Shown here one piece after another: positions 20,763 through 60,067 of a DNA stretch of 64,000 nucleotides; the first letter of the stretch is position 1, and each line of letters opens with the position of its first letter. The position numbers were made by a program, and so were the translations under genes. The stretch lies in the NCBI GenBank assembly GCA_964535735.1, contig CAZHTM010000005.1:13017-77016 (forward strand), in the 5' to 3' direction. The DNA comes from an uncultured bacterium (lineage in GTDB: Bacteria > Fidelibacterota > Marinisomatia > Marinisomatales > J089). The notes under the pieces were generated by a model, which had not been told where the DNA came from, made no database searches, and saw only the letters and a program-made list of their open reading frames with translations.

Positions 20763-20822
20763 ATAAGTTAAATTAGAATTAGATAAAATTTGCTAAACAA
20801 GACACAACCAGGAGAATACATA

Positions 20823-21233
20823 ATGAAACGCAACCAAGAAGGATTCACCCTGATTGAATTGGTCATGGTGATTGTGATTCTGGGTATCTTAGCCGCCGTG
20901 GCAATTCCGAAATTTGCTAATCTGACAACTCAGGCGAATGAAGCCGCTGAAGATGGTGTAATTGGAGGACTGAGATCCGGAGTATATACGTACAGTGTCA
21001 ATCAAATGGCTGCAGGATTTGGTCAATCATATCCTACGGATCCATTTGACGGTCTTGATCAAAAACCCACTGGATATACATCTACTTCCCCCACTCCCGC
21101 CGCTAACAATACCTGGGGCTTTAATTCAACAAGCAATTATATATACCACCAACGAAGTAATGGTGACAAATATTATTGGTCCTATTCTTCCGGCACGGGA
21201 ACTATTGGAACGCGGACAACTACTGCTCCATAA
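20823..21233 (+). CDS. pilA: Major type IVa pilin (136-aa precursor, 7-aa leader)
   Basis: MKRNQEG|[24 protein letters not shown] class III signal. AGGAGA RBS. I moved the start from 20790 to ATG 20823. Confidence 0.85.
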
Positions 21234-26121: not shown

Positions 26122-27123
26122 ATGCCACAAAAGCTAAATAGATTTGAACGATATTTAAGTTCCAATTTAGGGTATGGGTCATCTTCTTTTACTTATAAAG
26201 AACTATTATTATTTAATGAAAAACTATTAGCTCAAATCCGGGCAGGCCAAATTCTCTCGGATGCACTTGAAGCTGTATTTGATACCACGGGAAATCGCGT
26301 CCAGAGGATGGTGCTATTCAGTATTACAAACGCCGTAAAAGCCGGTGCCCCTCTCTCCCAGGCTATGCTTACATTTAAAGATATTTTCCCTAATTTTTAT
26401 ATTGCCATGATTATGGCGACGGAAAGAAGTGGAAAAATGATTCAGGGTCTGGAAGCCATGAGCTTACACCTGAAGAACGAAAATAAATTGTTCGATTATT
26501 ACAATGTCTCTATGTTTTACCTGAGACTTCTGATTTATCTATTTTTAGCGGGAATGGTCTATTTATTTGTACGCTTGGGGATTTTAACTCTCTCTCTTGA
26601 CAGCATTCTCTACTCCACCGGCACATTAGCCTTTCTTGCTTTAATAGGTAGTTGGGTTAGTCGTATTCTACAGAAAAATGAAGTACTGAAAGAAAATATA
26701 TTAAACATTATACCATTTGCCGGAAAGATTCATAACTTGGCCTTGATCAGCAGTTATTGTTTTCTTTTTAATGTTTTTCATAGATCAGGTGTCCCCATTT
26801 CCCAGATCAATGGTTTACTTGTCAATTATATTGGCGGAGCTCATTTAGCTCAGGATATCCAACGACTAGGAGAATTGAGCCAGTCCAATCCCGACCCCGA
26901 TCGTTTACCTAAATATTTCACAGTTCTTCCGGATACTCTGGCGCGTGAAATTATTCTCTTTGAACATGGTAAGACTAAGTTCAATACCATTCAAAATTAT
27001 TCTCAGTTTGTCAGCATTGAAATCGATGACATTGCTGCTCAGATTCTTAGCTTGGAAAAACGAATTTTAATGGGCTCTTTAAGTATTGGCGCTTTAGTTA
27101 TTTATTTGTCCTTGATCTATTAA
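26122..27123 (+). CDS. Divergent, short GspF/PilC-family platform-like protein (333 aa)
   Basis: One recognisable T2SSF repeat (LSDALEAVFD...VKAGAPLSQAMLTFKDIFPNFYIAMIMATERSGKMIQGLEAM) plus TM helices. The second repeat is weak. Confidence 0.6.
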   Translation: MPQKLNRFERYLSSNLGYGSSSFTYKELLLFNEKLLAQIRAGQILSDALEAVFDTTGNRVQRMVLFSITNAVKAGAPLSQAMLTFKDIFPNFYIAMIMATERSGKMIQGLEAMSLHLKNENKLFDYYNVSMFYLRLLIYLFLAGMVYLFVRLGILTLSLDSILYSTGTLAFLALIGSWVSRILQKNEVLKENILNIIPFAGKIHNLALISSYCFLFNVFHRSGVPISQINGLLVNYIGGAHLAQDIQRLGELSQSNPDPDRLPKYFTVLPDTLAREIILFEHGKTKFNTIQNYSQFVSIEIDDIAAQILSLEKRILMGSLSIGALVIYLSLIY

Positions 27124-27245: not shown

Positions 27246-28286
27246 ATGGTCGATATTCTGGAATTGTTGAGATTTACTATTTCTTCCGGCGCTTCAGACC
27301 TCCATTTAAATGCGGGAGCCCCGCCCATGGTGAGAGTTGACGGAATGATGAAAAAAATTGATGTTCCTGATCTGCTACCAGAAGATATCCATCGTCTGAT
27401 TTATGATATCATGACTGACCAAGAACGAAAACGTTTTGAAGAAAATTGGGAATTGGATTTTTCTCGCGAAATCGGGTCCATAGGACGTTTTCGTGTAAAT
27501 GTTTATTACCAGAATGATGGAAAGGCTGCTGTCTTTCGTACCATTCCTACCAAAATTTTAACCATGGAAGAACTCAATTTACCCGATGTGATTAGAAAAT
27601 TATGCAATTTGGAGAAAGGGCTGGTCTTGGTTACCGGTCCAACCGGTAGTGGTAAATCCACAACCCTGGCAGCCATGGTAGACTATATCAATTCCGTTCA
27701 ACGATCCCATATCATTACTATTGAAGATCCGATTGAATTTGTTCATAAAAGTCGGTCTTGTCTAATTAGCCAACGGGAAGTGGGCCGCGATACTAAATCT
27801 TTTTCAAATGCTCTGCGGAGCGCATTGCGGGAAGATCCGGATGTAATCCTGGTAGGTGAAATGCGAGATCTGGAAACAATTGCATTGGCTATCAGCGCTG
27901 CGGAAACCGGACATCTTGTATTTGGAACGCTACACACCAATAGCGTGGCAAAAACCGTGGATCGAATCGTTGATGTATTTCCCACGAATCAGCAAGGACA
28001 AATCCGATCTATGTTTGCCGATTCTATTGAGGGTATCATTTCACAAATACTTTTACGTCGGAAAGAAGGGAAAGGTCGGGTGGCCGCTTTAGAAATATTA
28101 GTGGGAACAAATGCGATTCGAAGTTTGATCCGGGAAAATAAAACATACCAGATTGAATCAGCACTACAGACGGGATCATCCCTGGGTATGTGTACCATGG
28201 AACAAGCCCTTCGAAAGCTACTACAGGATGGAGCTATATCACGTGAAGCGGCCCAAGAAATTATTCCTAAAATGGACGTAACCTGA
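27246..28286 (+). CDS. pilT: PilT retraction ATPase, copy 2 (most canonical)
   Basis: GASDLHLNAGAPPMVRVDG, GPTGSGKST and AIRSLIRE, 346 aa. Confidence 0.9.
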   Translation: MVDILELLRFTISSGASDLHLNAGAPPMVRVDGMMKKIDVPDLLPEDIHRLIYDIMTDQERKRFEENWELDFSREIGSIGRFRVNVYYQNDGKAAVFRTIPTKILTMEELNLPDVIRKLCNLEKGLVLVTGPTGSGKSTTLAAMVDYINSVQRSHIITIEDPIEFVHKSRSCLISQREVGRDTKSFSNALRSALREDPDVILVGEMRDLETIALAISAAETGHLVFGTLHTNSVAKTVDRIVDVFPTNQQGQIRSMFADSIEGIISQILLRRKEGKGRVAALEILVGTNAIRSLIRENKTYQIESALQTGSSLGMCTMEQALRKLLQDGAISREAAQEIIPKMDVT

Positions 28287-28307: not shown

Positions 28308-29426
28308 ATGAATTTTAGCGATCTGATGAAATTAATGGTGGAAAAAGATGCCACCGACCTTTACATCTCAGTCGGAAATCCACCGATGTATCGAATTGGG
28401 CATGAAATCTATCCTGTAAGTTCTACCAAGCTTACTCCCGCTATGACCGAAAAAATTGCATATTCATTTTTAGATGAAAAACAGGCCAGGGAATTTCAAG
28501 AACATCATGAGATCGATATAGCCTATTCGGTACCGGGAGTTGGTCGGGTGCGGATAAATATTTTCCTGCAACGTGGATCAGTTGGATTAGTATTGAGACA
28601 TATCAAGTCGGAAATCCGCACTCTGGAAGACCTGGGCATGCCGGCTATTATCAGTAAAATTTGTGATACACCTCGTGGACTTGTTCTCATCACCGGTGCC
28701 ACCGGCAGTGGTAAATCCACAACGTTGGCAGCCATGATCGACCACATCAATTCAACCCGTACGGGGCACATCGTTACCATCGAAGACCCCATGGAATTTT
28801 TACATTACCATAAAAAATGTATTGTCACCCAACGTGAAGTGGGAATGGACACCGAATCCTATGCCGTCGCATTGAAAAGTGCCTTACGTCAGACACCGGA
28901 TGTTCTACTGATAGGAGAAATTCGAGATCGGGAGACCATGAAGGCGGCTTTAACTTTTGCAGAAACCGGTCATTTAGTTTTCAGTACCTTACATTCAGTC
29001 AATGCATCACAAACACTTGAACGGATCATGAATTTCTTTCCCGTTGATAATCACCCAATGATTCGTCAACACCTTTCATTAAACTTACGCGCGATCATCT
29101 CTCAGCGACTCGTCACTCGCAAGGATGGTTCCGGGATGGTAGCTGCCCTGGAGATTCTGGTGAATACATCACGAATTAGTGACTTGATGTATAAAGGTCT
29201 CATTGATGAAGTAAAAACAACCATTGGCGCATCCCGTGAGTCGGGAATGCAAACTTTTGATCAACATCTTTTTGACCTTTACAAGGAAGGGATAATTTCC
29301 ATGGATGATGCCCTCACAGCAGCAGACAGCGCCAATGATTTGAAACTACATATGAAAATGGAAGGTGCCGAAGTGGAAGCCGATCGTAATATGATGAATG
29401 AAACCATTACGTTTCGCGATGATTGA
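28308..29426 (+). CDS. pilU: PilU-like PilT-family ATPase
   Basis: DATDLYISVGNPPMYRIG and GATGSGKST. It lacks the AIRNLIRE motif (SRISDLMYKG) and has an extended C-terminus, as in PilU. Confidence 0.8.
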   Translation: MNFSDLMKLMVEKDATDLYISVGNPPMYRIGHEIYPVSSTKLTPAMTEKIAYSFLDEKQAREFQEHHEIDIAYSVPGVGRVRINIFLQRGSVGLVLRHIKSEIRTLEDLGMPAIISKICDTPRGLVLITGATGSGKSTTLAAMIDHINSTRTGHIVTIEDPMEFLHYHKKCIVTQREVGMDTESYAVALKSALRQTPDVLLIGEIRDRETMKAALTFAETGHLVFSTLHSVNASQTLERIMNFFPVDNHPMIRQHLSLNLRAIISQRLVTRKDGSGMVAALEILVNTSRISDLMYKGLIDEVKTTIGASRESGMQTFDQHLFDLYKEGIISMDDALTAADSANDLKLHMKMEGAEVEADRNMMNETITFRDD

Positions 29427-29689: not shown

Positions 29690-30196
29690 ATGATGAAGAA
29701 AACAGGTAATCACGTGCAACAAAGATCATCAAAATCCGGATTCACCTTAATCGAACTAGTTATGGTCATTCTTTTATTAGGAATTTTATCCACTATTGCC
29801 ATTCCCAAAGTAACAGACATTATACAAACTGCCCGATTGAAAGCTACAAAAGGTGAGATGACGGAATTAAAAAAGGCCATTATGGGAGATCCATCTTCTG
29901 TGGCTGGTGGCGTCTTAATTGATAAGGGATTTAATGGCGATATTGGGCATCTTCCCGTAACTTTAGATGATCTTGTGAATCAGGGATCCTATCCCAATTG
30001 GAATCGATTTACCCAATCTGGATGGAACGGACCTTATATTTCTGAAGATTTTTCATCCGACAATGAATGGAAAATAGATGCCTGGGGAAACACATACGAA
30101 ATATTTAGTCCTGCCGCCGGAGATACCAGCCTGCTCAGCTATGGTCCGGATGGCACCAAAGGAACCAGTGATGATCTGAGCCTTCATCTTAAATAA
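29690..30196 (+). CDS. GspG-like major pseudopilin (168 aa)
   Basis: KSG|[22 protein letters not shown] class III signal and C-terminal DAWGNTYEI...SYGPDGTKGTSDD, typical of T2SS GspG. Confidence 0.8.
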   Translation: MMKKTGNHVQQRSSKSGFTLIELVMVILLLGILSTIAIPKVTDIIQTARLKATKGEMTELKKAIMGDPSSVAGGVLIDKGFNGDIGHLPVTLDDLVNQGSYPNWNRFTQSGWNGPYISEDFSSDNEWKIDAWGNTYEIFSPAAGDTSLLSYGPDGTKGTSDDLSLHLK

Positions 30197-30208: not shown

Positions 30209-33046
30209 ATGGAAAAACATCACTTGATAAACACACCCAAAAAAGCATCTGGGTTTACCCTTTTTCAGCTCGTTGCACTGATTGTCGTGCTGGGAATCTT
30301 GGCAGCTACAGCTATCCAGGTAGTGGTGATACTGACCCCGTCAAGTTGGGAAGCCGAAGCATTAGCGGAAATGGAAAAAATACGTTGTGGGATTGTTGGA
30401 TGTACCGAAGGCGACTGCGGCTTTATTGGCGATAATGGAGCCATTCCATCTCAACTACAGGATTTACTGGAGGACCCGGGTTCTGGTCAATATTGTAACT
30501 GGCTAGGCCCCTATTTGGATGTAACCTTCGTTGACAACCCCTATGATTATCTCTATGATCCGTGGGGGAACCCTTATATCTGGGACACACAAAACTTAAC
30601 GCTAACTTCGACCTCTGGAGGAAATGGCGCCGAACCCCTAACCATTTCACTGGCCAATGAAGTTACCGATCTATTAAGTAATACCGTTCAATATCAATTC
30701 ACTGATGCCAATGGTTTGCCATTAGATTCATCATCCATTGATGTCTATGTGAATTACGGTTGTGGAGACATTAAACTTGACTATAGCGCTTCCCTTGGTT
30801 TTTATGGAGAAGGATTTCCAACGTGTGGACTGGAAGTCGTTGTCGTGTCTGGTGTCGATACGCTTCATCCACCTGCTTGTCCTGACCCGCCCTGTGATCC
30901 AGCGCCAATAACTTGTGATTACGGAACGATACAATATTCAGGATCAGCAGCCTTAAGCGGAACCATGAATGACGTCATCTCTTTTCAGGCCAGCGCCACA
31001 GGAGATTGTCAGTTCGATATTAAGAGTTTGTCCTTCGAATGGTCAGGTTCCAACTGGTGTAACCAAACACCTTATTTAGAAACATTTAAAGTAGGTGGTA
31101 GCACTTATTGGGATTATCAAGTCGATAACAACGGCGTTCGCGCTGTGTCTGGTCAAGAGATGGTCTTGAGAAGTACTCTTATTGCAAACCCCGGCACTAC
31201 ATTGAATATTACTGAAGTAAAATATGCCGATGCTCGCACCGGGTCAGCAAATCCCATTCAATTAGATGGGACCACATTCAATTTCTTTCTTTATTCTGAT
31301 TTAGCGCCCACTCAGTTGATTTCTTTCACCGCACCGGGGACTCCCCCGACGGCCGGTTCTTTGATCTATTCGAGTGGGACGCTTGAAACTTCCGGGAGTG
31401 ACCGCCAAAATATTTCCTTCGATATTACTAATCCAGGTGAATGTTGCGTCACAATCAGTGGAATGATCGTTTCTTGGGACACAACATCCACAATTTCCTA
31501 TCTGGAAGAAATTAAAATCGGAGGAACTACGTATTGGAAAGATAAGGAATGCAGAATTGCCTCCGGTCAATATTTAGCATTGGATGATATTGTCACTATT
31601 TGTGATGCCACCAAAACTATAGAATTAAAAAGTTTCACTACCGATCGTGGTTCAGATTGGGGGGACTATTATTCCGATCCCACAAGCACCTCTACAGTAA
31701 GCGGGTCAATTAACATCAATCCTAATAATAGCACATATAATCAATTCTATCTTGTGAAAACTGATGGTAGTCTGATTACCCGGGATGATTTAACCCAATC
31801 GGCTTCTGATTTCCAGGGAAGCGCTATCTGGGTTCATGTTAAACCCAAAGGAAATGGTAACCAGAACGGCCTCACGGTCAATGGATCATCCTATGCCGTG
31901 GATAACGGAAAACAATATGATATTTCTTCCAGCAATATGACCGTGAATCTCTACAACGATAATCGTTCCGGGGGACTGGCATTAGGTCAGTGGTGGATCG
32001 ATATAACCGCCACCGACGCCGTTATCGCTGAAAATGGCCATGGCTATTACTTGGATGATGAATCCAATTCATATTCAGAATACATCCATCGATATGCGTG
32101 TGAAAATCTGGAGGGCGGCGGCGGCGACCATGGGGATCATAATGACCATGGAGATCATGATGATCATGATGATCATGGGGATCATAACGACCATGGAGAT
32201 CACGACGACCACGGTGATCACAATGATCATGGGGATCATAGTGGTAGTTCCGGTTCATATTATTCACCTCCTGATTGTCCTGATGACGACGGAGATGGTA
32301 AAATTACCATAACGCATTATCCTTCCGGGGATACAGACCATCCTCAGGTTATCTGTATTTCAACCGATGCCTGGGACGCACATAAAGCCCATGGTGACGA
32401 GTGCGGAACACCGGCTCAAGAAGATAGCTATGAATGTTCAACAGAGAAAGATCATGTAAGCGGGAACGGAGATAAAGTGGATATGCGGGGACATCAAATT
32501 GAAGTCACCTTCATCGCTACAGATGGTACCCAGTATCCTTTTGTATTCAATACCGAATCCCGGAACGGACCTAATCTTGTTATTTACAATAACAATATCG
32601 ATGTCTCCGGGTCTGGACATTATACTGTGGAATTCGACGTGAAAAACACAGGAGATAGCCCCTTACAAATCAAACAAATAACGGCATCGTGGGATAAATC
32701 CAATGCCTATGCCTCCAAATTCAAAGTTGGTAGTACAACCTACTGGAATGCGGGTAAAGATGAACGGTTATCCAGTGGTGGCGTTTTGGATCTTGATAAT
32801 TATCTATATTTGGAAGCCAATAAACGCGTTACACTGAAGTACTATAAATTCAAAGACAGTCTAACCGGTGGAGACTATACAGACATGCGCGGTGTTGATT
32901 TCACGGTCATTTTTACAGGTGTTGGAGATGATAATGACTATACTCTTTCCTTCACAACACCCGGTACCAGTGGAGATGATCACAACGATCATGGGGACCA
33001 CGATGACCATGGAGACCATGGTGACCACGATGATGATGATCATTAA
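30209..33046 (+). CDS. Giant pseudopilin-like protein P1 (945 aa): prepilin signal with Gln at +5, GspG-like head, three copies of an unnamed beta domain, two Asp-His repeat tracts
   Basis: KKASG|FTLFQLVALIVVLGILAA; GFIGDNGAIPSQLQDL; DPWGNPYIWD; repeat units around aa 241-376, 385-478 and 795-918; DH tracts at aa 640-677 and 923-945. Confidence 0.8.
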   Translation: MEKHHLINTPKKASGFTLFQLVALIVVLGILAATAIQVVVILTPSSWEAEALAEMEKIRCGIVGCTEGDCGFIGDNGAIPSQLQDLLEDPGSGQYCNWLGPYLDVTFVDNPYDYLYDPWGNPYIWDTQNLTLTSTSGGNGAEPLTISLANEVTDLLSNTVQYQFTDANGLPLDSSSIDVYVNYGCGDIKLDYSASLGFYGEGFPTCGLEVVVVSGVDTLHPPACPDPPCDPAPITCDYGTIQYSGSAALSGTMNDVISFQASATGDCQFDIKSLSFEWSGSNWCNQTPYLETFKVGGSTYWDYQVDNNGVRAVSGQEMVLRSTLIANPGTTLNITEVKYADARTGSANPIQLDGTTFNFFLYSDLAPTQLISFTAPGTPPTAGSLIYSSGTLETSGSDRQNISFDITNPGECCVTISGMIVSWDTTSTISYLEEIKIGGTTYWKDKECRIASGQYLALDDIVTICDATKTIELKSFTTDRGSDWGDYYSDPTSTSTVSGSININPNNSTYNQFYLVKTDGSLITRDDLTQSASDFQGSAIWVHVKPKGNGNQNGLTVNGSSYAVDNGKQYDISSSNMTVNLYNDNRSGGLALGQWWIDITATDAVIAENGHGYYLDDESNSYSEYIHRYACENLEGGGGDHGDHNDHGDHDDHDDHGDHNDHGDHDDHGDHNDHGDHSGSSGSYYSPPDCPDDDGDGKITITHYPSGDTDHPQVICISTDAWDAHKAHGDECGTPAQEDSYECSTEKDHVSGNGDKVDMRGHQIEVTFIATDGTQYPFVFNTESRNGPNLVIYNNNIDVSGSGHYTVEFDVKNTGDSPLQIKQITASWDKSNAYASKFKVGSTTYWNAGKDERLSSGGVLDLDNYLYLEANKRVTLKYYKFKDSLTGGDYTDMRGVDFTVIFTGVGDDNDYTLSFTTPGTSGDDHNDHGDHDDHGDHGDHDDDDH
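32126..32239 (+). repeat. In-frame imperfect 9/18-nt tandem repeat encoding (DHx)n: DHGDHNDHGDHDDHDDHGDHNDHGDHDDHGDHNDHGDH
   Basis: 13 consecutive Asp-His dipeptides spaced by G/N/D. The DNA units gaccatggRgatcataaY recur with synonymous wobble differences. Confidence 0.9.
32975..33043 (+). repeat. C-terminal Asp-His tract DDHNDHGDHDDHGDHGDHDDDDH ending P1
   Basis: Read directly from the ORF. It immediately precedes the stop codon at 33044-33046. Confidence 0.9.
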
Positions 33047-33066: not shown

Positions 33067-33098
33067 TCCTGGTCGGGGAACATCTTCCTTGACCAGGA
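33067..33098 (+). terminator. Extended hairpin between P1 and P2 (possible attenuator/partial terminator)
   Basis: TCCTGGTC-GG-GGAA-CATC-TTCC-TT-GACCAGGA followed by TTATTCTATTC. It lies in the 63-nt gap before ATG 33110. Confidence 0.35.
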
Positions 33099-33109
33099 TT
33101 ATTCTATTC

Positions 33110-34732
33110 ATGACATCCAAATCACATAGCATCGTGGCCTCCAACATCAAAAAATCCGGTTTTACTCTCATTGAACTTGTGATCGTAATCATTATCATGG
33201 GCATTCTAGCAGGCATTGCCGTGCGCACCACAACCCGGATTGCCCTGAATGCCAAATTCAATGAAACGTATGAAGAAATGCAATTGTTGGTAAAAGCCAT
33301 TATTGGGGATTCCAATATTATTCAGAATGACGTTCGTACCAGCTTCGGTTATGTAGGCGACACTGGCGTGATGCCACCGACACTGGACGACTTAATGTCT
33401 AATGTATCAGGCAAAACAGGTTGGGCCGGGCCGTATATGGACGCGGGTTATACTCAAGATCCTGACTTTTATAAACGGGATGCCTTCGGAAAACAATACC
33501 GATATGTTTTACCCACTGTAGGTACCGAGGCTCCTAAGATTTGGACACCTACGGATGGTGATACAATTACTGTAAAGATTGCCACTAGTTTAAACGCCAT
33601 TTTAAATAATACAATTAAATTGCGATTATACAGCGAAAATGGCGTCGAAATTAACGGGACAAATGGATCAGTGGCAGTTAGCTACAGTGGAGCCTGGCAT
33701 CCCCTGACGTATAGTTCATCAACAGGATTTAAAATTAACACTGTTCCTATCGGATTGCGTCAACTCCGTGCAATTTCCGCGGGAGATACTGTCTATAAGA
33801 CAATTTCAGTAGAAGAGGCAAACGGAACAACGGGAAATACTTTAACAATGACGGTATACCCTGATTATGGTAATTTGACATATGTTTCCGGATCGGCTTC
33901 TATCTCCGGCGCGGGAAATAACCAGGTTTCCTTTACGGTGACTAACACCGGAACGCCTACGTTTGATATTGATAGAATGACTATTACCTGGGAAGCATTA
34001 CCAAACGATTGCTGGAATTGTAAAAAGGCTTACTTGGCCGAAGTCCAGAAAACCTCGACATACTGGAAATGGAATACCAATGGTCGGTCAGCTTTGGTTC
34101 CCAGTGGCGCTCAGATCGTTTTAGATGGTACTATGTCCCTCTATACCGGACCTAATTCCATCGGTCCACTCATATTTTTGGATGGCACCGATGGTACCAC
34201 GGCCAATACTATCAATATGAACGCCACACGTTTTACGATCCGGTTTGAATCATCCACCGCTCCTTCACAGACAATCACCTTTGATAACGCAACAACGTGT
34301 GCTGCACCCAGTCTATCCCAAAATGGAGCCGCCACCCTGATCGACGGAGCGCGTTTATCGGTACCAGTACAAAATCCCGGTGTATTGCCCGTCACGATTA
34401 CATCCATGACCGTATCCACTGATATTACCACATCGACCGCCTATCTGGATCGTATTCGTTTCGATGGCGCAGATGTCTGGCTGGCCAACGTAACCGCCTG
34501 TAGCAATGTGGCTCGTCCCACGGTAGCAAACAACGCTACGGGAACAGCCGATTTTCTCATTTGCACCTATGCCCTCCCGACAATTAACGCCGGATCAACC
34601 GCTACTGTAGAAATACGGCTAAGGAAAGATCCTACTGGAACAACAAATGTTCCTGTTGCTGTCGGTCAAAGTTATATCCTGGTGTTTAATCTCCAGTGTG
34701 GTAGCTCCCAAACGATTGCCTTCACGTTGTAA
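33110..34732 (+). CDS. Giant pseudopilin-like protein P2 (540 aa)
   Basis: KKSG|FTLIELVIVIIIMGILAGIAV; GYVGDTGVMPPTLDDL; DAFGKQYRY; two C-terminal repeat domains with CWNC at 34010-34021. I moved the start from TTG 33089 to ATG 33110. Confidence 0.8.
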   Translation: MTSKSHSIVASNIKKSGFTLIELVIVIIIMGILAGIAVRTTTRIALNAKFNETYEEMQLLVKAIIGDSNIIQNDVRTSFGYVGDTGVMPPTLDDLMSNVSGKTGWAGPYMDAGYTQDPDFYKRDAFGKQYRYVLPTVGTEAPKIWTPTDGDTITVKIATSLNAILNNTIKLRLYSENGVEINGTNGSVAVSYSGAWHPLTYSSSTGFKINTVPIGLRQLRAISAGDTVYKTISVEEANGTTGNTLTMTVYPDYGNLTYVSGSASISGAGNNQVSFTVTNTGTPTFDIDRMTITWEALPNDCWNCKKAYLAEVQKTSTYWKWNTNGRSALVPSGAQIVLDGTMSLYTGPNSIGPLIFLDGTDGTTANTINMNATRFTIRFESSTAPSQTITFDNATTCAAPSLSQNGAATLIDGARLSVPVQNPGVLPVTITSMTVSTDITTSTAYLDRIRFDGADVWLANVTACSNVARPTVANNATGTADFLICTYALPTINAGSTATVEIRLRKDPTGTTNVPVAVGQSYILVFNLQCGSSQTIAFTL

Positions 34733-36345
34733 TGAACACCCGTCGATATTCCCCTGTCCCCGGATTTACTCTGATAGAGCTGGTAATGGTTATCGTAATT
34801 ATGGCCATTGTTAGTGCCGTGGGGATTCGTACGATTGCCCGAGTAAATGCAAACCGGAACTTCAATATTACCATGGAAAACATGCTTAATTTAAAGTATG
34901 CCATCGTAGGTAATCCCAAAATGGTAGAAAACGGTGTCAGGATTGATTACGGTTATGTAGGTGATACAGGCCAACTACCAACCAGTTTGAATGACCTTAT
35001 GACTGACCCCGGCGTTGCCGGTTGGGATGGACCTTATGGGGACTATACCGGAATTCAAGAAGATCCTACTGCCATATTTCGGGATGGTTGGGGAAAGACC
35101 ATCACGTATACTGTACCAAACAACAATACCGATCCCATTACACTGTCCAGTGCCGGAGGAGGATCACCTATTGAATTGATCGTCGCTAACAATAAAAATG
35201 AAATTTTAAACAACACTGTTGCCCTTCGGGTTAGAAATAAAGATGGATATCCGCTCAGAGGTGATGATGCTACTGTCCAAATCCAATACGGTGGCGGCAC
35301 CTGGCAAACCCTATCGTACGCAACAACTTTAGGCTATTATATTGATACCGTTCCGATTGGCATGGCCACCTTACGGTTTATTGTGGCGGGCGATACGACC
35401 CTTCGCCAGCTCAGCGTGGGTCCCAACAATTCCACGACTAGCCCTAACGAAGGATTGGAATACACCGTAAATCCCGTTTTTGGAACACTAAACTACGTGG
35501 CCGGTTCCGCAAGTCTAGGAGGCACCAATAACTCGGAATTAACCTTTACAGTGAATAATTCTGGTAGTACGATTATGGAAATCGACCAAATCAGTGTTGG
35601 TTGGTCGAATTCATCCTGTTGGGAATGCGATTACGCTTATCTGGCGAACATCACGGTTAATGGAACCGATTATTGGCGCTGGAATACAACGAATCGTAAT
35701 GCTTTGGCATCTACTGACGCTCGGTTGGTGTTGGACCAGAAACTCTCCCTTTCATCCGGAAATACAACCATTGGTCCCCTTGCTTTCCAGGATCTGGTAG
35801 ATGGTACCGGTTCGCCCCAACCTATGAATGCGGTCACGTTTCAGATTACGTTTTTATCGGATCTGACGCCGAATCAAATTGTTAGTTTTTCTACGGGAGG
35901 CACCTGTTCGCCGGCAGTCATTTCCTATTCGAATTTATCCAAACCACTGAATTATCGCGTACGGTGTCAGCTGGATAATACGGGGAATGCTAAAGCCACC
36001 ATCACCGGTATGAATATTAAGTGCGATGTGAGTCCTTCACCTTACCTAGATGTTATTTCTTTTGTAGACTTAACAAACATTTACTGGCAAGCCAATCAGT
36101 CCTGGTGTGGTAATCAATCCCGACAATTGGTTGATAATTTGAACGGAGCTGAGATCACATTCTGCAAAACACAACCGCCAGTAACGGTCCCAGGAGGGAG
36201 TTACATATTGTTAAATCGGATGGACTTTTATACGAGTGCTCAAGCGGATGATAACACTAAAGCAGATGTTACCGGTGGAAATTTCACGTTAACACTCCAT
36301 TTCAAATGCGGATCTGATCAAACGATCTCTTTCACCATGCCTTAA
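34732..36345 (+). CDS. Giant pseudopilin-like protein P3 (537 aa)
   Basis: MNTRRYSPVPG|[16 protein letters not shown]; GYVGDTGQLPTSLNDL; DGWGKTITY; CWEC at 35617-35628. The ATG overlaps the P2 stop by 1 nt (TAATG). Confidence 0.8.
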   Translation: MNTRRYSPVPGFTLIELVMVIVIMAIVSAVGIRTIARVNANRNFNITMENMLNLKYAIVGNPKMVENGVRIDYGYVGDTGQLPTSLNDLMTDPGVAGWDGPYGDYTGIQEDPTAIFRDGWGKTITYTVPNNNTDPITLSSAGGGSPIELIVANNKNEILNNTVALRVRNKDGYPLRGDDATVQIQYGGGTWQTLSYATTLGYYIDTVPIGMATLRFIVAGDTTLRQLSVGPNNSTTSPNEGLEYTVNPVFGTLNYVAGSASLGGTNNSELTFTVNNSGSTIMEIDQISVGWSNSSCWECDYAYLANITVNGTDYWRWNTTNRNALASTDARLVLDQKLSLSSGNTTIGPLAFQDLVDGTGSPQPMNAVTFQITFLSDLTPNQIVSFSTGGTCSPAVISYSNLSKPLNYRVRCQLDNTGNAKATITGMNIKCDVSPSPYLDVISFVDLTNIYWQANQSWCGNQSRQLVDNLNGAEITFCKTQPPVTVPGGSYILLNRMDFYTSAQADDNTKADVTGGNFTLTLHFKCGSDQTISFTMP

Positions 36346-36402: not shown

Positions 36403-36609
36403 ATGAATCCAATTAATTTCATTTTAATAATCGCTATCCTCGCCCTGGTCTTCGGTCTCTTATTGATGTTTAATCCCGAGTTTGTAAAAGAATTAAATGA
36501 ACTGGGAAATAAGATTATTGCCACCGATGAACAAATGCTGGCACATCGCTACATTACTGGTGCTGTTTTAGTGATCTTGAGTCTGATTCTGATTGTTATT
36601 AGTTGGTGA
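36403..36609 (+). CDS. Small 2-TM membrane protein (68 aa), paralog of 29423-29638
   Basis: MNPINFILIIAILALVFGLLLMFNPEFVKELNELGNKIIATDEQMLAHRYITGAVLVILSLILIVISW aligns with the 71-aa protein at G, P, N, N-[RK]-[VI]-I, D-[DE] and TGA. Confidence 0.55.
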   Translation: MNPINFILIIAILALVFGLLLMFNPEFVKELNELGNKIIATDEQMLAHRYITGAVLVILSLILIVISW

Positions 36610-36638: not shown

Positions 36639-39080
36639 ATGCCCAGGGGGAACCATCCATCTGCACTAGACTCCTCCCTCACCCAACGTGAAATATATCT
36701 TCCGGTTTTAACCGGATTTCATTTTGGTCTAATCCAAGTATCCAGTTATTTCCTGTTTCAATGTTATTACACAGCCACATTTATGGGGTATTTTTTCTTG
36801 GGCGTGGCTTGGATTGTAGGCGTCTGGTTAAATCTTCGGTTTGGAAAACCATTAACATTACGACATAGTCTCTATTTATCTGCCGTATTCTATCTGCTCC
36901 TAGCTTTGGCTTTGGTTCGGGGAACTCCGAACGGATTTTTCATTCCTATTTACGAATTTCTGATTCTCGGAATAGCCGCACCTGCTGGAGCTCTTTTTCG
37001 GACACGGGCATCCACACAACCCACAGCCCACCTGTTTTTCCATGAAAACAACGGGTTTGTCATGGGATTTGTGGTTAGTCTTCTAGGATTTGTCCATTGG
37101 GGTGTCCGTTCACCGTTTATTCTTCCTGTAATCTCTTTTATTCTAATTCTACTTATATACCGTTATGGTTCTTTAAAATATCCATTAATCGTTCTGGGAA
37201 CAGGAACAATCCTTTTACTTTCCCAAGGTCTCTTTGATATAGCATTTATGATAGGATTTTTTATCTTGATCCTGTTTTTCGCACGCAAATTCACAATCCC
37301 GGTTGTAAATCAGAATCAGGAAATTTCTGCTCCGGCTATTTCTGTTTCGGGAAAAAAAATGATTCTTTTTCTCTCCGGATTTAATTTAATCATACTTCAA
37401 TTTTTTATAACCCGGGAATTTTCAACATTGTTATCCGCTTCTGAATTGTCAATACTCATCGTGGCTACAGCCTATTTCACAGGTTATTCCATCGGCTATC
37501 TCGTGGCTCCTCGTATCCCCGAAAAGTTGATTCCATTTTTAGGGTGGTTCATCCTCTTCCTCCATCTGGATATCTTTCTCTTCCTGCGATATTTTGCCGC
37601 TCTTTTAGTATATCTCGGGGCCGGATGGTGGGTGCTCATGGGACTATTGTTTATAACATCCCTTTTTACCTCAGCATTTTATTCCCTGTTTCTTCCGCGG
37701 TTGACCGATAACCGTACATTACACTTGAAATTAACTTCTACCTATTCACTGGAATTGGCAGGAGCAGTTGTAGGTACAATTTTCTTGGTCATTCACACTC
37801 TTTCGGGAGCCCGGTGGATTCAACCTGTATATTTTTTCATCCTGCTAAGCATCCTTTATCTTCTTCAACCTCGGGGCCGATGGAAGTTCACACCTCTGAT
37901 TGGAGCGTTGGGTATACTCCCTTTTCTGATATTCTATGGCCCGAAATTAAACCAAACTGTCATCCGGGATTATTATGCCCTGCGGGGGTACAGTAATCCC
38001 ACAATTTGCTATCAAACAAATAGCCTATATCATACCATCGAAATTTTAGACACCCACCCGCAGCCGGGCTTCCCTGCCGATGGTCGTTGGTCATTTATTA
38101 ACGGTGTCCTGTACTTTGGGTACCAAACTGACACTTCCGGTGCTTTTATCCAGGAAACAGGATTATCTGAATTCACTTATTTTTTAGCAGAACTCCCTGC
38201 TCGTTACCAGGTCATAAGTACTGGTCGAAAACTCAACATTCTGATTTTAGGATGTGGATCGATGTATTCCATTGGTCGTGTGGGACCTTATGCCGATAAG
38301 ATCCAAATGGTGGAAATTGACCCTGAAATCGTCCGGTCTGCTAAAGCTTGTTGGAGCCAACTGAATCAATATGATCAATGGCCCAATGCTCAAATCATCA
38401 TTGATGACGCTAAGCACTTTATTCGTACCCAAGACACGGTTTACGATTTAATCATCATGGATATTTCAGCACCTTATACTCTGGGAACTTTACTTTTACA
38501 CAATCAGGATTTTTTCCGAATCCTGAAGGATCGACTGGCTCCCGGTGGTTTGTTCGCCGAATCCACGCAAGGACGAGCCGATCCTGACTATCCCGAAAGC
38601 CAGGGGATGAAAATCCTAGCAGGTGTTGTCAATGAATATTCTGAAACTCTGGTACTAAATACCTATGGAAGTGGTCATGGTAACCATGGATTTGTCTATT
38701 CCTCCCAAGATGATTCTATCGATTGGAAACGCATGGATTCACTTCTTATCGCAGATAATATGCGATCCGGTGTTCGACTTGAAACAGACTGGGATACAAA
38801 AGTGGACTGGACCACAATCCGACCGTTTACCTATTCGAACATGGAAACACTTTTATCAGGAAACATCTGGCGCTTGACTGACCGGTTAGAACTGGATCGA
38901 ACATTTCTGGACCTAGACTGGTTACGTCGACGTTGGTCGCGATTAGCTACCTTTCATTTACAATTACCCCAAGAACTCCGTCAGCTTTTCCGGTCCCCGT
39001 GGTTTTGGGTTTGGTTTGCTTCTTTTGGTGTGACGTTTATTTGGTCTTACGGACCTTTTACTTCTAAGCGCCAAAGCTGA
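36639..39080 (+). CDS. Polytopic membrane domain fused to spermidine-synthase-like (class I MTase fold) C-terminal domain (813 aa)
   Basis: About 12 TM helices in the first ~430 aa, then YHTIEILD, ILILGCGSMYSIGRV, VEIDPEIVRSAK, IIIDDAKHFI, YDLIIMDISAP and LKDRLAPGGLF, co-linear with SpeE-family motifs. The glycine-rich loop is GCGSM rather than GGGDG. Start uncertain. Confidence 0.65.
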   Translation: MPRGNHPSALDSSLTQREIYLPVLTGFHFGLIQVSSYFLFQCYYTATFMGYFFLGVAWIVGVWLNLRFGKPLTLRHSLYLSAVFYLLLALALVRGTPNGFFIPIYEFLILGIAAPAGALFRTRASTQPTAHLFFHENNGFVMGFVVSLLGFVHWGVRSPFILPVISFILILLIYRYGSLKYPLIVLGTGTILLLSQGLFDIAFMIGFFILILFFARKFTIPVVNQNQEISAPAISVSGKKMILFLSGFNLIILQFFITREFSTLLSASELSILIVATAYFTGYSIGYLVAPRIPEKLIPFLGWFILFLHLDIFLFLRYFAALLVYLGAGWWVLMGLLFITSLFTSAFYSLFLPRLTDNRTLHLKLTSTYSLELAGAVVGTIFLVIHTLSGARWIQPVYFFILLSILYLLQPRGRWKFTPLIGALGILPFLIFYGPKLNQTVIRDYYALRGYSNPTICYQTNSLYHTIEILDTHPQPGFPADGRWSFINGVLYFGYQTDTSGAFIQETGLSEFTYFLAELPARYQVISTGRKLNILILGCGSMYSIGRVGPYADKIQMVEIDPEIVRSAKACWSQLNQYDQWPNAQIIIDDAKHFIRTQDTVYDLIIMDISAPYTLGTLLLHNQDFFRILKDRLAPGGLFAESTQGRADPDYPESQGMKILAGVVNEYSETLVLNTYGSGHGNHGFVYSSQDDSIDWKRMDSLLIADNMRSGVRLETDWDTKVDWTTIRPFTYSNMETLLSGNIWRLTDRLELDRTFLDLDWLRRRWSRLATFHLQLPQELRQLFRSPWFWVWFASFGVTFIWSYGPFTSKRQS

Positions 39081-40681
39081 AACTTTTTGCATCGCGCGCC
39101 CAAAACTGGACTCGCTTTTACTTTCAAACGTTCAAGAATCGAGAATGGCGGGCCAGGATCATTTGTTAGAAAAAACATCGGAACGCCTCTATCAACCATC
39201 GTTTTTAGTTCCGCCGTAGTTAATGGTGGTTTATAAATGGCCATACTCAGTTGACTTAACAAATACTGATTTCGTAAAACATCATTACTCTTGTCCAGAT
39301 AAGTTATCACTATCGGAGTTGCCGTTGTATAAATCCTAAAATGATTCGCCAAGTGACGACGATCTACTAGTACAATGGCTTTATCAGGCAAAAACGAACG
39401 TAATCCCATGACTAAATTGGGATACGGTGTTCCCCGAAGATAATACCCGCTAAACCCCGTCATCTCTTTACTATGATAACGCCTGAAATTTGTATAAGGT
39501 ATCACTGATTTATAGGCCTGGATATATTGATACCCATTAACAAAAATTAAAAATGTAAATACGGCGCCTAAAGTCAGAATTTTCCGTCGGCTCCCGTCTG
39601 TAAACCAGCCCAAGCCTACCAATACCATCCCGGCGAATATGGTAGGAATCCATTGCTCTGGATCCCAGGGAAGCCAGAAGAAAAAATGAAAAGAAATCAA
39701 TCCTAAATACAGAGTAAAAAATGCGGTAATTCCCGGTCGTTTTTTCCAAGCCTTTTTAATAGTCATAATCATGAATACGGTTCCAAGGACCATTTCTCCC
39801 AACATCCAAGGTCCTTCACCGGTTTCACCGATCAACATACGCCGAAAGCCCGTCCATGCTTCTACAGCCTGGTCAAGAATATGTGGGGTCACTGAAAAAA
39901 ATTCGCCAGTCACATGGTACTCAAAAAGCCATTGGAGTGCCCCCGCAACAGTGGTAATGCCATTGATCCCTACAATCAGAAATCCGAACCAAACCAAACC
40001 CGTCATCAGTGCCGAGACACCGATCAGCAGGAATTGCTTCCATGATAGTTTCCTTTTCAATACATGACCGCCTAAAACAGACACAATGGTTAAGACCATA
40101 ATCCCGTTTTCGAGATGTGCCATAACGGAGAGGGCCAGGGTAAACCCCAATATTCCTTCTGGTCCATAGAATACATAGTGTCGGATATTGGGTAAGCCAT
40201 GTTTTATCCATCCCAGATAAGCAAAGGTGAGGTAAACACAGATCTGTTGGAAAAAGAGCAGAATTTCTTTTTCTTCACCCTGAGTGGCAAACATCCAGCG
40301 ACCATGAAAGATAATCGTTAGGGATGTTAACAGAAATGCTATGCGCTTAAGCTTCAGAATACGGTATAACCCCCAATACATGAGAGCTGAATTCAAAGCG
40401 GCAAAAATAATTTCCCGAATACTCACCACCACATGTGGATCCGTACCCGGAAGCATTAGACTAACCAATCGGGTTAATGGAAGCACCAGTGTATGGGCAA
40501 AAAAGAATATGACAGTAGAGGGCATCGTGGACCAGTCCTGCACAATGGTTGCCGACATAAGGCTGTCCCAACGACGAAATCCCGGCATTGGGAAAATCAA
40601 ATATAGAATCGCTGTACAAAGCGCTAATACGAGAGCCGGGAATCCGGGACTAATATGAATATTCCTTGGTTTCATTTCCAT
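39047..40681 (-). CDS. Polytopic membrane protein (544 aa), GT-C-like glycosyltransferase architecture suspected
   Basis: About 12 hydrophobic helices plus a ~150-aa soluble C-terminus. It is the only minus-strand gene inside the pseudopilin block, and its 3-prime end overlaps 36639-39080 by 34 bp. Confidence 0.45.
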   Translation of the reverse strand: MEMKPRNIHISPGFPALVLALCTAILYLIFPMPGFRRWDSLMSATIVQDWSTMPSTVIFFFAHTLVLPLTRLVSLMLPGTDPHVVVSIREIIFAALNSALMYWGLYRILKLKRIAFLLTSLTIIFHGRWMFATQGEEKEILLFFQQICVYLTFAYLGWIKHGLPNIRHYVFYGPEGILGFTLALSVMAHLENGIMVLTIVSVLGGHVLKRKLSWKQFLLIGVSALMTGLVWFGFLIVGINGITTVAGALQWLFEYHVTGEFFSVTPHILDQAVEAWTGFRRMLIGETGEGPWMLGEMVLGTVFMIMTIKKAWKKRPGITAFFTLYLGLISFHFFFWLPWDPEQWIPTIFAGMVLVGLGWFTDGSRRKILTLGAVFTFLIFVNGYQYIQAYKSVIPYTNFRRYHSKEMTGFSGYYLRGTPYPNLVMGLRSFLPDKAIVLVDRRHLANHFRIYTTATPIVITYLDKSNDVLRNQYLLSQLSMAIYKPPLTTAELKTMVDRGVPMFFLTNDPGPPFSILERLKVKASPVLGARCKKFQLWRLEVKGP

Positions 40682-40799
40682 TTCTCAACTCAAATTAAGT
40701 CATCTATGAACATGTTTAAGCCGAAAAAATATCCTTTGTTTAGCATGACTTGCAGGGTTGCGAAATAATACCGGGTGGTTTAGTTTCTGCAACATTCCC

Positions 40800-42413
40800 A
40801 TGGTTACAATAACAAAATCCCATCGCCATCAATATTCGGGTTTTTCACTCATGGAACTCGTAATGGTCATGATCATTATCGCGATCCTTAGCGGCATTGG
40901 TGCTCGGTCGCTAATGCGTGTTTTTGACAATGCCAATGTGAACGGAACAATTGCTGAAATGCGTATTTTGGCCGAAGGGATCGTTGGAAATCCCGATATT
41001 ATGGAAAATAATATTCGAACCAATTATGGATACGTTGGCGATACGGGTCAACTCCCCCCTACTCTTAGGGATTTGGTATCCAATGAATCCGGTGTCACAG
41101 GATGGGATGGTCCGTATATCGATGTCGGTTTTTCTGATGATCCTGATTATTACCTGACCGATGCCTGGGGTAATAATTATGTGTATGTTGTACCCTCTGA
41201 CCCCACGCAACCTCCAATTATCTACACCCCTGCCGACGGGGATACCATCACTAAAAAAATCGGGAATAGTGTAAATGAACTGCTGAACAACACGATAAAA
41301 ATCAGACTATTAACTTCGAAGGATGTGGAAATAGACGACTCATCGGGTAAGGTGGAAGTGAAATATGCAGGTTCTTACCATACATTGAGTTTTAATTCGA
41401 CCGAAGGCAATTTCACGGGTTCGGTACCGATAGGAATTCATTTAATCCGGGCGATATCTGCCGGCGATACGGTGTATAAATCAGTATCCGTCTCACCGGG
41501 AAATCGAACCACCAACAACAGTATTGAAATCACAGTCTATGCCAGTTATGGTCATGTCACGTATGTTGATGGATCAGCTTCGGTGGAAACAACTACTCAA
41601 AACGAAGTGTACTTTGATGTGCATAATTCAGGAAGCACCACGATGCCCATCAATAAAATGACCCTCACCTGGGAAGCAGCCACCCAAAATTGCTGGAATT
41701 GTGCCACACCCTATTTGGAAGAAGTCAAAGTGGCAGGCACTTCTCACTGGAAATGGGATGTGAATAGTACCGCTTTATCCCCCAGCGATGCGCAAATAGT
41801 TCTGGGTGCCAAAATCCAAATCTATTCCGGCGATATGACCTTGGGTCCCTTTATTTTTAAAGATGCCGCCGATGGGACGGGCGCAGCCGTTGATATGCGG
41901 GGCACGACGTTTACCATTAAACTTCAGTCCCAGATCGCTCCAACTCAAACCATCATATTTACAACTGAAGGAGTGTGTTCTGACCCTAATCTTTCACTCT
42001 CTGGAACCGTCACTAGTGATACACGCAACGTGTATTTTCCTTTAAAAAACACGGGTTTTGTGACCACCGAATTGACCAGTATCCAAGTTAGTACAAATAT
42101 TTCCGCCTCCACCGCCTACCTGGAAACCGTGTTTCTAGCGGGAAACACGGTGTGGCAAGCTGATAATGCCAATTGTGGTTCGGTCCCCCGCCAACGGATA
42201 GATAGCAATATACAGGCGACTATTCCGTTTTCTAGTTGTAGTTATACTAATCCCAGTTGGACTGCGGGCCAGTCACAAACTCTGCGTATGCGGATTTATG
42301 ACGGCACTACTGGAACGGCCGCGGTGACCGGCGGCTTCTCAGGAATTGTCTTTGATATCACCTATAATTATGCCTGTGGTGCCTCACAGACAACATCCAT
42401 TCCGATCCCATAA
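40800..42413 (+). CDS. Giant pseudopilin-like protein P4 (537 aa)
   Basis: MVTITKSHRHQYSG|FSLMELVMVMIIIAIL; GYVGDTGQLPPTLRDL; DAWGNNYVY; CWNC at 41691-41702. It is co-linear with P2 along its full length. I moved the start from 40758 to ATG 40800. Confidence 0.8.
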   Translation: MVTITKSHRHQYSGFSLMELVMVMIIIAILSGIGARSLMRVFDNANVNGTIAEMRILAEGIVGNPDIMENNIRTNYGYVGDTGQLPPTLRDLVSNESGVTGWDGPYIDVGFSDDPDYYLTDAWGNNYVYVVPSDPTQPPIIYTPADGDTITKKIGNSVNELLNNTIKIRLLTSKDVEIDDSSGKVEVKYAGSYHTLSFNSTEGNFTGSVPIGIHLIRAISAGDTVYKSVSVSPGNRTTNNSIEITVYASYGHVTYVDGSASVETTTQNEVYFDVHNSGSTTMPINKMTLTWEAATQNCWNCATPYLEEVKVAGTSHWKWDVNSTALSPSDAQIVLGAKIQIYSGDMTLGPFIFKDAADGTGAAVDMRGTTFTIKLQSQIAPTQTIIFTTEGVCSDPNLSLSGTVTSDTRNVYFPLKNTGFVTTELTSIQVSTNISASTAYLETVFLAGNTVWQADNANCGSVPRQRIDSNIQATIPFSSCSYTNPSWTAGQSQTLRMRIYDGTTGTAAVTGGFSGIVFDITYNYACGASQTTSIPIP

Positions 42414-59285: not shown

Positions 59286-59333
59286 GGTTTAGTCCTGTAC
59301 TTTATTCTCAAAGATTCAAATGAATGTAAAAGG

Positions 59334-59367
59334 AAGGCCCCCGCTCTCAGATGAAAACGGGGGCCTT
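59334..59367 (-). terminator. GC-rich hairpin between the two cytochrome genes (partial terminator/processing site candidate)
   Basis: AAGGCCCCCG-N14-CGGGGGCCTT, a 10-bp perfect stem, followed on the minus strand by CCTTTTAC. Confidence 0.5.
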
Positions 59368-59390
59368 CTACATAAAGCTATACCAATTGG

Positions 59391-60005: not shown

Positions 60006-60067
60006 CGTATTACCTCTCTTTTTTCTTTTAAGTTTATTAGGTTCAAAAAACATTCACTTTCAAATAC

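Follow-up and report, generated by a model that had tools for sequence, protein, structure and literature searches.

What do four large pilin genes in an uncultured marine bacterium carry beyond the pilin itself, and what might the additions do? The genes, here called P1 to P4, lie with a small pilin gene, P0, in a 64,000-nucleotide stretch of DNA (the window; GenBank assembly GCA_964535735.1, contig CAZHTM010000005.1, positions 13,017 to 77,016) from a member of the Fidelibacterota (Marinimicrobia), an abundant uncultured marine phylum in which surface attachment is poorly understood. A first-pass annotation of the sequence had described P1 to P4 as giant pseudopilins sharing an unnamed, internally duplicated, beta-rich domain with a CW[NE]C motif. 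In the present analysis, the last 290 residues of P2 (33860 to 34732) were confirmed as two diverged copies of one unit of ∼140 residues, and each of P1 to P4 consists of a pilin head, a spacer resembling CarboxypepD_reg, and unclassified beta-sandwich units. Because the unit array is fused via the spacer to the C terminus of a GspG-like head, P1 to P4 are modular pilins.

A tandem unit at the C termini of P1 to P4

The five pilin genes and the copies of the unit in them are located as follows.

29690 to 30196, forward strand: P0, a GspG-like pilin of 168 residues that lacks any added module; its gene opens the pilin set
30209 to 33046, forward strand: P1, 945 residues
30905 to 31336, forward strand: P1 unit copy 1 (residues 233 to 376), with NWCN replacing CxxC; matched by the unit-A hidden Markov model (HMM) at an independent E value (iE) of 9.5e-27
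31337 to 31636, forward strand: P1 unit copy 2, head (residues 377 to 476)
31637 to 32434, forward strand: insertion in P1 copy 2 (residues 477 to 742, ∼266 residues), containing a His/Asp repeat
32435 to 32560, forward strand: P1 unit copy 2, tail (residues 743 to 784)
32561 to 32983, forward strand: P1 unit copy 3 (residues 785 to 925), without cysteine; unit-A HMM iE 5e-12
33089 to 34732, forward strand: P2, 547 residues, TTG start
33860 to 34285, forward strand: P2 unit A (residues 258 to 399), the first copy, with CWNC at 34010 to 34021
34286 to 34729, forward strand: P2 unit B (residues 400 to 547), the diverged second copy
34732 to 36345, forward strand: P3, 537 residues
35473 to 35892, forward strand: P3 unit A, with CWEC at 35617 to 35628
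35893 to 36342, forward strand: P3 unit B
40758 to 42413, forward strand: P4, 551 residues, TTG start
41541 to 41963, forward strand: P4 unit A, with CWNC at 41691 to 41702
41964 to 42410, forward strand: P4 unit B

Profiles of the two units were built from 18 family members (the three paralogs of ∼540 residues and 15 full-length relatives), split at residues 258 to 399 and 400 to 547 of P2. Aligned to each other with hhalign, units A and B matched with a probability of 98.1% (E value of 1.1e-13 over 113 columns), and the repeats are thus supported by profile-profile alignment. Among the decoys, a reversed unit B gave a P value of 0.015, ten column-shuffled profiles gave P values of at least 0.16, and the mid and N-terminal domains gave at least 0.06. 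The two HMMs also found each other's copies within single proteins: the unit-A HMM matched unit B of P2, P3, and P4 at iE values of 4e-4 to 5e-3, and the unit-B HMM matched unit A of the same proteins at 1e-6 to 7.5e-5. In total, nine copies are present in the window, two each in P2, P3, and P4 and three in P1, which is the number that had been counted by eye. No ORF (open reading frame) other than P1 to P4 carried the unit when the six-frame translation of the window was searched with the unit HMMs. The units are 140 to 148 residues long instead of the 120 to 140 first proposed, and the five strand strings quoted for them are all present (at residue 280 of P2, 270 of P3, 284 of P4, and 402 and 807 of P1). 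The mid domain that precedes the units was considered as a third copy and rejected (hhalign probability of at most 0.9%).

The repeat was correctly recognized in P1 as well, except that its second copy is split by the ∼266-residue insertion. HMM positions 2 to 107 correspond to the head of this copy and positions 108 to 141 to its tail, and the last two strands resume at residues 743 to 784. The tail, which matches the last 39 positions of the unit, aligns with the stacked unit profile (hhalign probability of 92.6%, E value of 4.5e-7) and is kept in orthologs. The same split pattern is found in the P1 orthologs, which places the insertion in a loop of copy 2. A contiguous copy 2 at residues 377 to 525, as aligned by MAFFT, was set aside because the HMM and hhalign favor the split model.

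The insertion is beta-rich and conserved in three orthologs, and it has no match in Pfam. It includes ∼13 repeats of (G/N/D)DH at residues 639 to 677 (32123 to 32239), and a further His/Asp-rich stretch forms the C-terminal tail of P1 (residues 923 to 945, 32975 to 33043). The lengths of both His/Asp-rich stretches differ among orthologs, and a weak HxsA4-like match was found in NCBIfam; such repeats may bind metal. A Cys/His-rich mini-motif, KITITHYPSGDTDHPQVICISTDAWDAHKAHGDECG, also lies inside the insertion (32300 to 32419), where it is conserved in orthologs and has no family match. The P1 ortholog of another lineage (L004, 5142 to 8279) has an extra C-terminal DUF7467 (residues 950 to 1032, E value of 5.6e-11), which is not in the P1 of the window.

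A predicted beta-sandwich and its relation to known families

The unit-A model predicted by AlphaFold is an all-beta sandwich (predicted local distance difference test [pLDDT], 92.8; predicted template modeling score [pTM], 0.87), and the tandem A+B model is likewise all-beta (pLDDT, 92.1). Both models have 9 to 10 strands per unit, in agreement with the beta-rich character read earlier from the sequence. Among the top 50 matches listed by Foldseek, on which all Foldseek statements here rest, a single unit had no PDB or viral match at an E value of ≤1e-3; the E values were at least 4.5e-3 and the template modeling (TM) scores at most 0.43. Nor did the unit have an above-threshold match in Pfam, NCBIfam, or PDB sequences. 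Each of 17 relatives (C-terminal half) and each of 67 diverse unit copies was scanned separately against Pfam, and the profile searches of PDB sequences returned nothing below an E value of 0.07. In P1 to P4, recognition by Pfam and NCBIfam is limited to the methylation motif at the N terminus and, weakly, to a GspG-like head. The unit is therefore unnamed, as first described, since all matches to existing families fall below their cutoffs.

The likeness to CARDB and immunoglobulin domains that had been proposed holds for the motif of the first beta-hairpin (xFxVxNxG...I) but not for membership: the best score against CARDB (PF07705) is 16.2 bits, compared with a cutoff of 22.7, and covers 20 to 40 residues. 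DUF1573 (PF07610) was rejected at a best score of 17.7 bits (cutoff, 26.1; 26 residues covered), and so was CBM3 (PF00942), with a Pfam E value of 0.074 and E values of 0.076 to 1.2 for PDB chains of this family. All three resemble the units in the opening hairpin motif and in the general two-sheet sandwich, with matches of 20 to 90 residues at E values of 0.003 to 0.4, below all curated cutoffs.

Two families nevertheless suggest an identity for the unit. It could be a carbohydrate-binding module (CBM), distantly of the CBM3 or CBM49 type, with which pili would anchor cells to polysaccharide particles. Searched against PDB sequences, the stacked unit profile matches CBM3 chains best (6sl4, E value of 0.076; 2xbt, 0.11; 3ndy; 6xx1), CBM_3 and CBM49 give weak, subthreshold Pfam matches, and the lectin-type Laminin_G_3 fills the slot of the unit in relatives. 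However, the E values exceed 0.01 throughout, it is mainly the first hairpin that is aligned, and CBM3 is not among the Foldseek matches. We consider this identity rather unlikely; it would specify the ligand in the adhesion model given below, with which it is compatible. That the unit is a homolog of the archaellin/archaeal type IV pilin beta-sandwich (PF01917), transferred onto bacterial pilins, seems to us distinctly improbable, although the signals from this family are the best among Pfam and Foldseek matches, if weak. PF01917 is the sole Pfam family matched by several units (5/67; best E value, 5.8e-5), one unit B matches it over 128 residues (E value of 1.5e-5, 25.9 bits), and the best single-unit Foldseek match is the Pyrobaculum flagellar-like pilus 8fk7, in a list that also includes FlaF, the H. 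salinarum archaellum, Iho670, and the S. acidocaldarius AAP pilin. Prompted by the subthreshold PF01917 matches and by the archaeal pilins ranked first by Foldseek, we tested homology with archaellins. Of 120 genuine archaellins fetched from Methanococcales and Thermococcales, the beta domain of 112 was compared with the unit profiles. The hhalign probability was at most 1% (P value of at least 0.055), the alignments covered at most 26 columns around an NxGSxxIDL hairpin, and they were no better than those of reversed decoys. In addition, all PF01917 scores fall under the cutoff of 29.5 bits, and the Foldseek values are those given above. The archaeal domains (8fk7, 9eq7, 5kyh, 8q30) and the unit have in common an all-beta sandwich on a type IV filament subunit and an xFxVxNxGSxxIxL hairpin; unlike the archaellin domain, which directly follows the N-terminal helix, the unit follows a complete bacterial alpha/beta pilin head. 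The resemblance thus appears to lie at the level of motif and general fold, at least for the archaellins of Methanococcales and Thermococcales.

Cysteines of the unit

The CW[NE]C motif does occur in the first copies of P2, P3, and P4, with NWCN in its place in P1 (31052 to 31063), and the nucleotide coordinates first given for all four were correct. The residue numbers, 301 in P2 and 298 in P4, become 308 and 312 here, because later Met starts had been assumed. In-frame ATG codons lie 7 codons downstream of the TTG start in P2 and 14 codons downstream in P4. The motif did not hold up as a hallmark of the unit: CxxC was found in 24/92 unit copies, 8 have the first Cys alone, and ∼20 have no Cys at all. 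From these counts, CW[NE]C is best read as a lineage-specific feature of the first copy that does not define the unit.

In the model of P2, CWNC lies in the loop joining the third and fourth long strands of unit A; unit B is without this 6-residue CxxC loop and has four conserved cysteines, including the one at the unit boundary. C51 does not vary among the 17 closest two-unit relatives, and C54, C147 (at the A/B boundary), C214, C235, and C280 hardly do. Three relatives (P0016, P0055, and P0056) have kept just two of these cysteines, the first of the loop and the one at the boundary, a pattern that suggests a structural disulfide from loop to tail. We infer a C51-C147 bond, with C54 bonding elsewhere, in preference to a metal site or a bridge within CxxC. 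The conservation of C51 and C54 in the closest relatives would also suit a redox or metal-binding center as the main purpose of the domain, but the other copies speak against it (P1 with NWCN, those with the first Cys alone or none, and just the 24/92 with CxxC), and the protein is extracellular; a metal site would also need more than two thiols. That CxxC is catalytic or binds metal is unlikely, and that such a center is the main purpose of the domain is improbable in the extreme. The beta-sandwich fold, together with the same counts, led us to reject membership in the thioredoxin-like and metal-binding CxxC families.

The pilin scaffold

The regions that precede the units in P1 and P2 are the following.

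30209 to 30904, forward strand: pilin head and mid domain of P1, mature N terminus FTLFQ, with Gln5 replacing Glu5
33089 to 33859, forward strand: N-terminal part of P2, comprising a class III signal peptide, a GspG-like head, and then the mid beta domain
33158 to 33565, forward strand: GspG-like pilin head of P2 (residues 24 to 159), N_methyl 30.8 bits, 39% identity to P0
33566 to 33859, forward strand: mid beta domain of P2 (residues 160 to 257), corresponding to CarboxypepD_reg in relatives

By their sequences, P1 to P4 are proteins of the type IV pilin kind, with a short basic leader ending in Gly, a hydrophobic helix, and a prepilin peptidase and pilus machinery encoded nearby. The cleavage site and start of the helix read GFTLIELV in P2 and P3, GFSLMELV in P4, and GFTLFQLV in P1. 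N_methyl (PF07963) scores are 30.8 bits for P2, 22.9 for P4, and 19.9 for P3 (cutoff, 21.2), and P2, P3, and P4 all pass TIGR02532. Glu is found at mature position 5 of P0, P2, P3, and P4. In P1 this residue is Gln (GFTLFQ, 30248 to 30265), which is kept in all P1 orthologs and relatives (L001, L004/L005, P0053, P0055, P0057, and P0064); the lack of Glu5 is expected for a tip-capping pilin.

P0 scores 30.2 bits for T2SSG and 27.9 bits for N_methyl, is 34 to 39% identical to the heads of P1 to P4, and is paralogous to them. Against PF08334, the 30.2 bits of P0 lie above the cutoff of 21 and the 12.7 to 20.2 bits of P1 to P4 below it. The GspG equivalog model TIGR01710 (cutoff, 88.85) gives 51.3 bits for P0 and 17 to 24 bits for P1 to P4. 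By these scores, P0 to P4 are GspG-like and not GspG equivalogs.

The three ∼540-residue proteins are colinear over their full length, as first noted: P2 and P4 (45.7% identity), P3 and P4 (38.1%), and P2 and P3 (37.8%) each align by BLASTP in a single alignment of 527 to 537 residues. In the first ∼160 residues, P2 and P4 had been judged about half identical by eye, and the measured value is 53%. The first ∼465 to 527 residues of P1 align with P2 to P4 at 26 to 29% identity, with further internal matches. The stop codon of P2 and the start codon of P3 share one base (TAATG, 34730 to 34734), which suggests translational coupling. P3 contains 16 NxS/T sequons, compared with 8.8 expected. Minus-strand ORFs within the genes (e.g., 34141 to 34431) were dismissed, as the plus frame is conserved, syntenic, and under purifying selection.

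Distribution, synteny, and selection

An HMM of the unit had been suggested as a way to find further carriers. When 1.84 billion cluster representatives were searched exhaustively by HMMER with the A+B profile, just 36 proteins (clusters) were found at an E value of ≤1e-3, 19 of them at ≤1e-10; a word-indexed search for relatives gave 49 matches. The carriers belong to Neomarinimicrobiota/Fidelibacterota, the “FCB group,” Zixibacteria, and a few others. Their architecture is almost always a pilin head followed by the mid domain and one, two, or three units, and remoter carriers have PilX_N, TadE, or N_methyl N termini. As nearly all carriers begin with a pilin, PilX_N, or TadE segment, the unit looks specific to type IV filament subunits. 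One marginal match (P0076) contains Ig_7 repeats and is probably a false positive. CarboxypepD_reg (PF13620) occurs at the position of the P2 mid domain in three relatives (P0044, P0048, and P0049). Other relatives with the same scaffold of head and mid domain have Laminin_G_3, a ConA-like lectin domain, or fn3 in the slot of the unit, Laminin_G_3 being the replacement in P0026, P0038, and P0039.

The five-pilin set P0 to P4 is syntenic across three Marinimicrobia lineages. In one relative, L001 (∼80% protein identity), the pilin set, a flanking Wzy_C protein with TPRs (tetratricopeptide repeats), and polytopic membrane proteins occur in the same order. The set of one small pilin, one of ∼1,000 residues, and three of ∼540 residues recurs in another lineage, L004/L005. 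L002 has four pilin genes in a row, one of which encodes the single-unit form. The ratio of nonsynonymous to synonymous substitution rates (dN/dS) had been suggested for the paralogs, where it is meaningless at 38 to 46% identity, and orthologs in L001 were used instead. Between the window and L001, dN is 0.06 to 0.20 in every domain, and dN/dS is 0.04 to 0.14 where computable; dS is saturated, so the ratio is given just as an upper bound, below about 0.15. Constraint on the units equals that on the pilin head, and the P0 to P4 set is under strong purifying selection.

Comparison with known pilins

The survey of Raynaud et al. (2021, PMC8179133) covers more than 1,200 modular pilins, in which modules for ligand binding are grafted onto pilins and are likely exposed at the tip; PilB and PilC of Streptococcus sanguinis, for example, carry a vWA module and a lectin module, respectively. 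Such pilins are thought to explain how simple filaments acquire many functions. P1 to P4 have the same plan, an N-terminal pilin module with at least one additional structural module (head, mid domain, and two or three units). Two modules that the survey found to be common, PF13620 and PF13385, are present in relatives identified in this analysis, and the exchange of the unit for Laminin_G_3 or fn3 is the module swapping described there. The survey sought domains “not specific to T4P biology” (type IV pili), defined domains that also occur outside type IV filaments; the unit has no signature and departs from this definition, as nearly all 36 clusters are pilin, PilX_N, or TadE proteins. Further differences from the surveyed modular pilins are that the module is tandemly duplicated here and that four paralogous modular pilins stand in one conserved operon.

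The unit is accordingly a rare new module of an already known design, P0 to P4 form an unusual all-paralog five-pilin operon, and no current view is overturned. Module surveys count just the modules with database signatures; the unit, with its confident fold prediction, tandem duplication, purifying selection, and near restriction to filament subunits, is a well-supported example without one. A family definition would allow such pilins to be annotated, and the unit is a concrete target for binding assays on particle attachment by Marinimicrobia.

CofB/TcpB of type IVb pili consists of a pilin, a beta-repeat, and an H-type-lectin-like sandwich, forms a homotrimer located at the tip, and initiates assembly. 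It is a large minor pilin, and P1 to P4, as putative minor pilins, share with it extra C-terminal beta domains that lack sequence signatures; CofB and TcpB chains are absent from the listed PDB sequence and Foldseek matches (top 50). Unlike this homotrimer, the system here is of the type IVa/MSHA-like kind and has four different paralogs. GspG with the GspH-I-J-K or PilH-I-J-K tip complex, like P0 to P4, makes a set of one small pilin and four others, P0 to P4 have GspG-like heads, and P1, the largest member, lacks Glu5 as does the cap GspK. In contrast to GspH-I-J-K, the heads of P1 to P4 are mutually paralogous and GspG-type, with scores far under the TIGR01710 cutoff, and the extra mass consists of C-terminal beta-sandwiches, not of an alpha-domain inserted in the head.

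A putative tip complex and the alternatives

We lean, by a modest degree, toward P0 to P4 being the minor-pilin set of the pilus encoded upstream, with P1 as the tip cap and the sandwich chains as an extended, disulfide-stapled adhesive structure. The prepilin peptidase (15566 to 16354) would cut after the conserved Gly, the hydrophobic N-terminal helix would insert each subunit into the pilus of the type IVa/MSHA-like machine, and the three to four beta-sandwich domains of the C-terminal part would point outward as a chain. As minor pilins, P0 to P4 would prime assembly and finish at the pilus tip, the 945-residue, Glu5-less P1 as the cap and P2 to P4 beneath it. The repeated modules would then serve adhesion as a stapled stalk or binding surface, for which polysaccharide, particle, or mineral surfaces are plausible ligands. 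Tip placement is favored by the separate 147-residue PilA-like pilin that follows PilC at 20790 to 21233, and the conserved set of 1+1+3 pilin genes, one with a Glu5-less product, has the look of a priming complex. Adhesion is favored by the presence of Laminin_G_3 or fn3 in the unit slot of homologous pilins. Several points weigh against this model. Tip location and adhesion are properties that we infer, for an organism that is uncultured. The heads of P1 to P4 are major-pilin-like (GspG-type) and mutually paralogous, unlike the divergent H/I/J/K-type heads, and could therefore copolymerize along the shaft. Canonical minor pilins may also be encoded elsewhere in the genome, outside the window.

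If such copolymerization took place, P2 to P4, with or without P1, would be shaft subunits joined to P0 or to each other, and their modules would form an outer sheath like the globular domains of archaeal pili and archaella, giving a thick decorated filament in place of a tip complex. The GspG-like heads, 34 to 39% identical to P0, the Glu5 retained in P2 to P4, and the weak likeness to archaeal pilin and archaellin outer domains that heads the single-unit Foldseek list are consistent with a sheath, and a location in the filament body with flexible linkers was left open by Raynaud et al. (PMC8179133). The small PilA-like pilin next to PilC and the resemblance of the conserved set to a priming complex argue the other way, and an appendage of 400 residues on every subunit would need to pass through the secretin. 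We regard shaft subunits as unlikely. To a similarly limited extent we entertain a tip-based variant, in which P0 to P4 would be a self-sufficient, P1-capped tip and priming complex made wholly of paralogs of one GspG-like pilin, replacing the H-I-J-K minor pilins and a PilY1-type adhesin. The unit, with a fold that would be specific to type IV filaments and that has no PDB neighbor at a TM score above 0.43 among the Foldseek matches, would then be an old, unrecognized accessory module, as its presence in subunits of the T4a-like, PilX-like, and Tad types suggests. A type II secretion-like system, with the pilins as its pseudopilins and the modules interacting with secreted substrates, is a very improbable reading. 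The weak T2SSG/GspG similarity of the heads agrees with it, as does the arrangement of a GspG-like pilin with four others, which recalls gspG-H-I-J-K. However, the three PilT retraction ATPases, together with PilM/N/O, the MshE-type ATPase, and the PilA-like pilin, speak for a retractile pilus, and no GspC, GspL, or GspM homologs were seen in the window. The term “pseudopilin” used at first was apt for the GspG-like head, but “pilin” fits better given the retractile-pilus machinery, which also includes a secretin and a prepilin peptidase.

The surrounding pilus locus

The gene content of the window amounts to a complete pilus system of the type IVa/MSHA-like kind. Its main genes and some of their neighbors are listed here.

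7062 to 10136: PilM-PilN fusion of 1,024 residues (PilM, residues 476 to 827; PilN, residues 930 to 1019), with an N-terminal region of ∼470 residues without assignment
12585 to 13691, 27246 to 28286, and 28308 to 29426: three PilT-like ATPases
15566 to 16354: prepilin peptidase (Peptidase_A24)
16366 to 18018: MshE-type extension ATPase with an MshEN domain of the type that binds cyclic di-GMP (c-di-GMP)
20790 to 21233: PilA-like pilin of 147 residues, following PilC
21323 to 22162, reverse strand: Laminin_G_3 (ConA-like lectin) protein of 279 residues, adjoining the PilA-like pilin gene
22331 to 26102 and 36639 to 40681: O-antigen-ligase-like Wzy_C protein with TPRs and three large polytopic membrane proteins
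26122 to 27123: second, short T2SSF-like platform protein of 333 residues
42757 to 44003: Hpt protein and GGDEF response regulator, directly after P4

Further members of the locus are an MshM-like ATPase, PilO, the secretin, a sigma-54 activator, and PilC. The MshEN domain, the Hpt protein, and the GGDEF regulator suggest control of the pilus by c-di-GMP. The genes of the Wzy_C-TPR and polytopic membrane proteins lie beside the pilin genes and between them, with synteny kept in L001 and L004, an arrangement that may reflect pilin glycosylation.

One of the three polytopic membrane proteins has a spermine-synthase-like domain. A 68-residue ORF with two transmembrane segments lies at 36403 to 36609, between P3 and the next membrane protein, and a 69-residue ORF, with a weak DUF6199 match, is found at the corresponding position in L001 and L004. 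Further along the window, a 1,877-residue hybrid histidine kinase rich in PAS and GAF domains (52700 to 58333, reverse strand) adjoins two small multiheme c-type cytochromes with paired CXXCH motifs (58674 to 60053, reverse strand).

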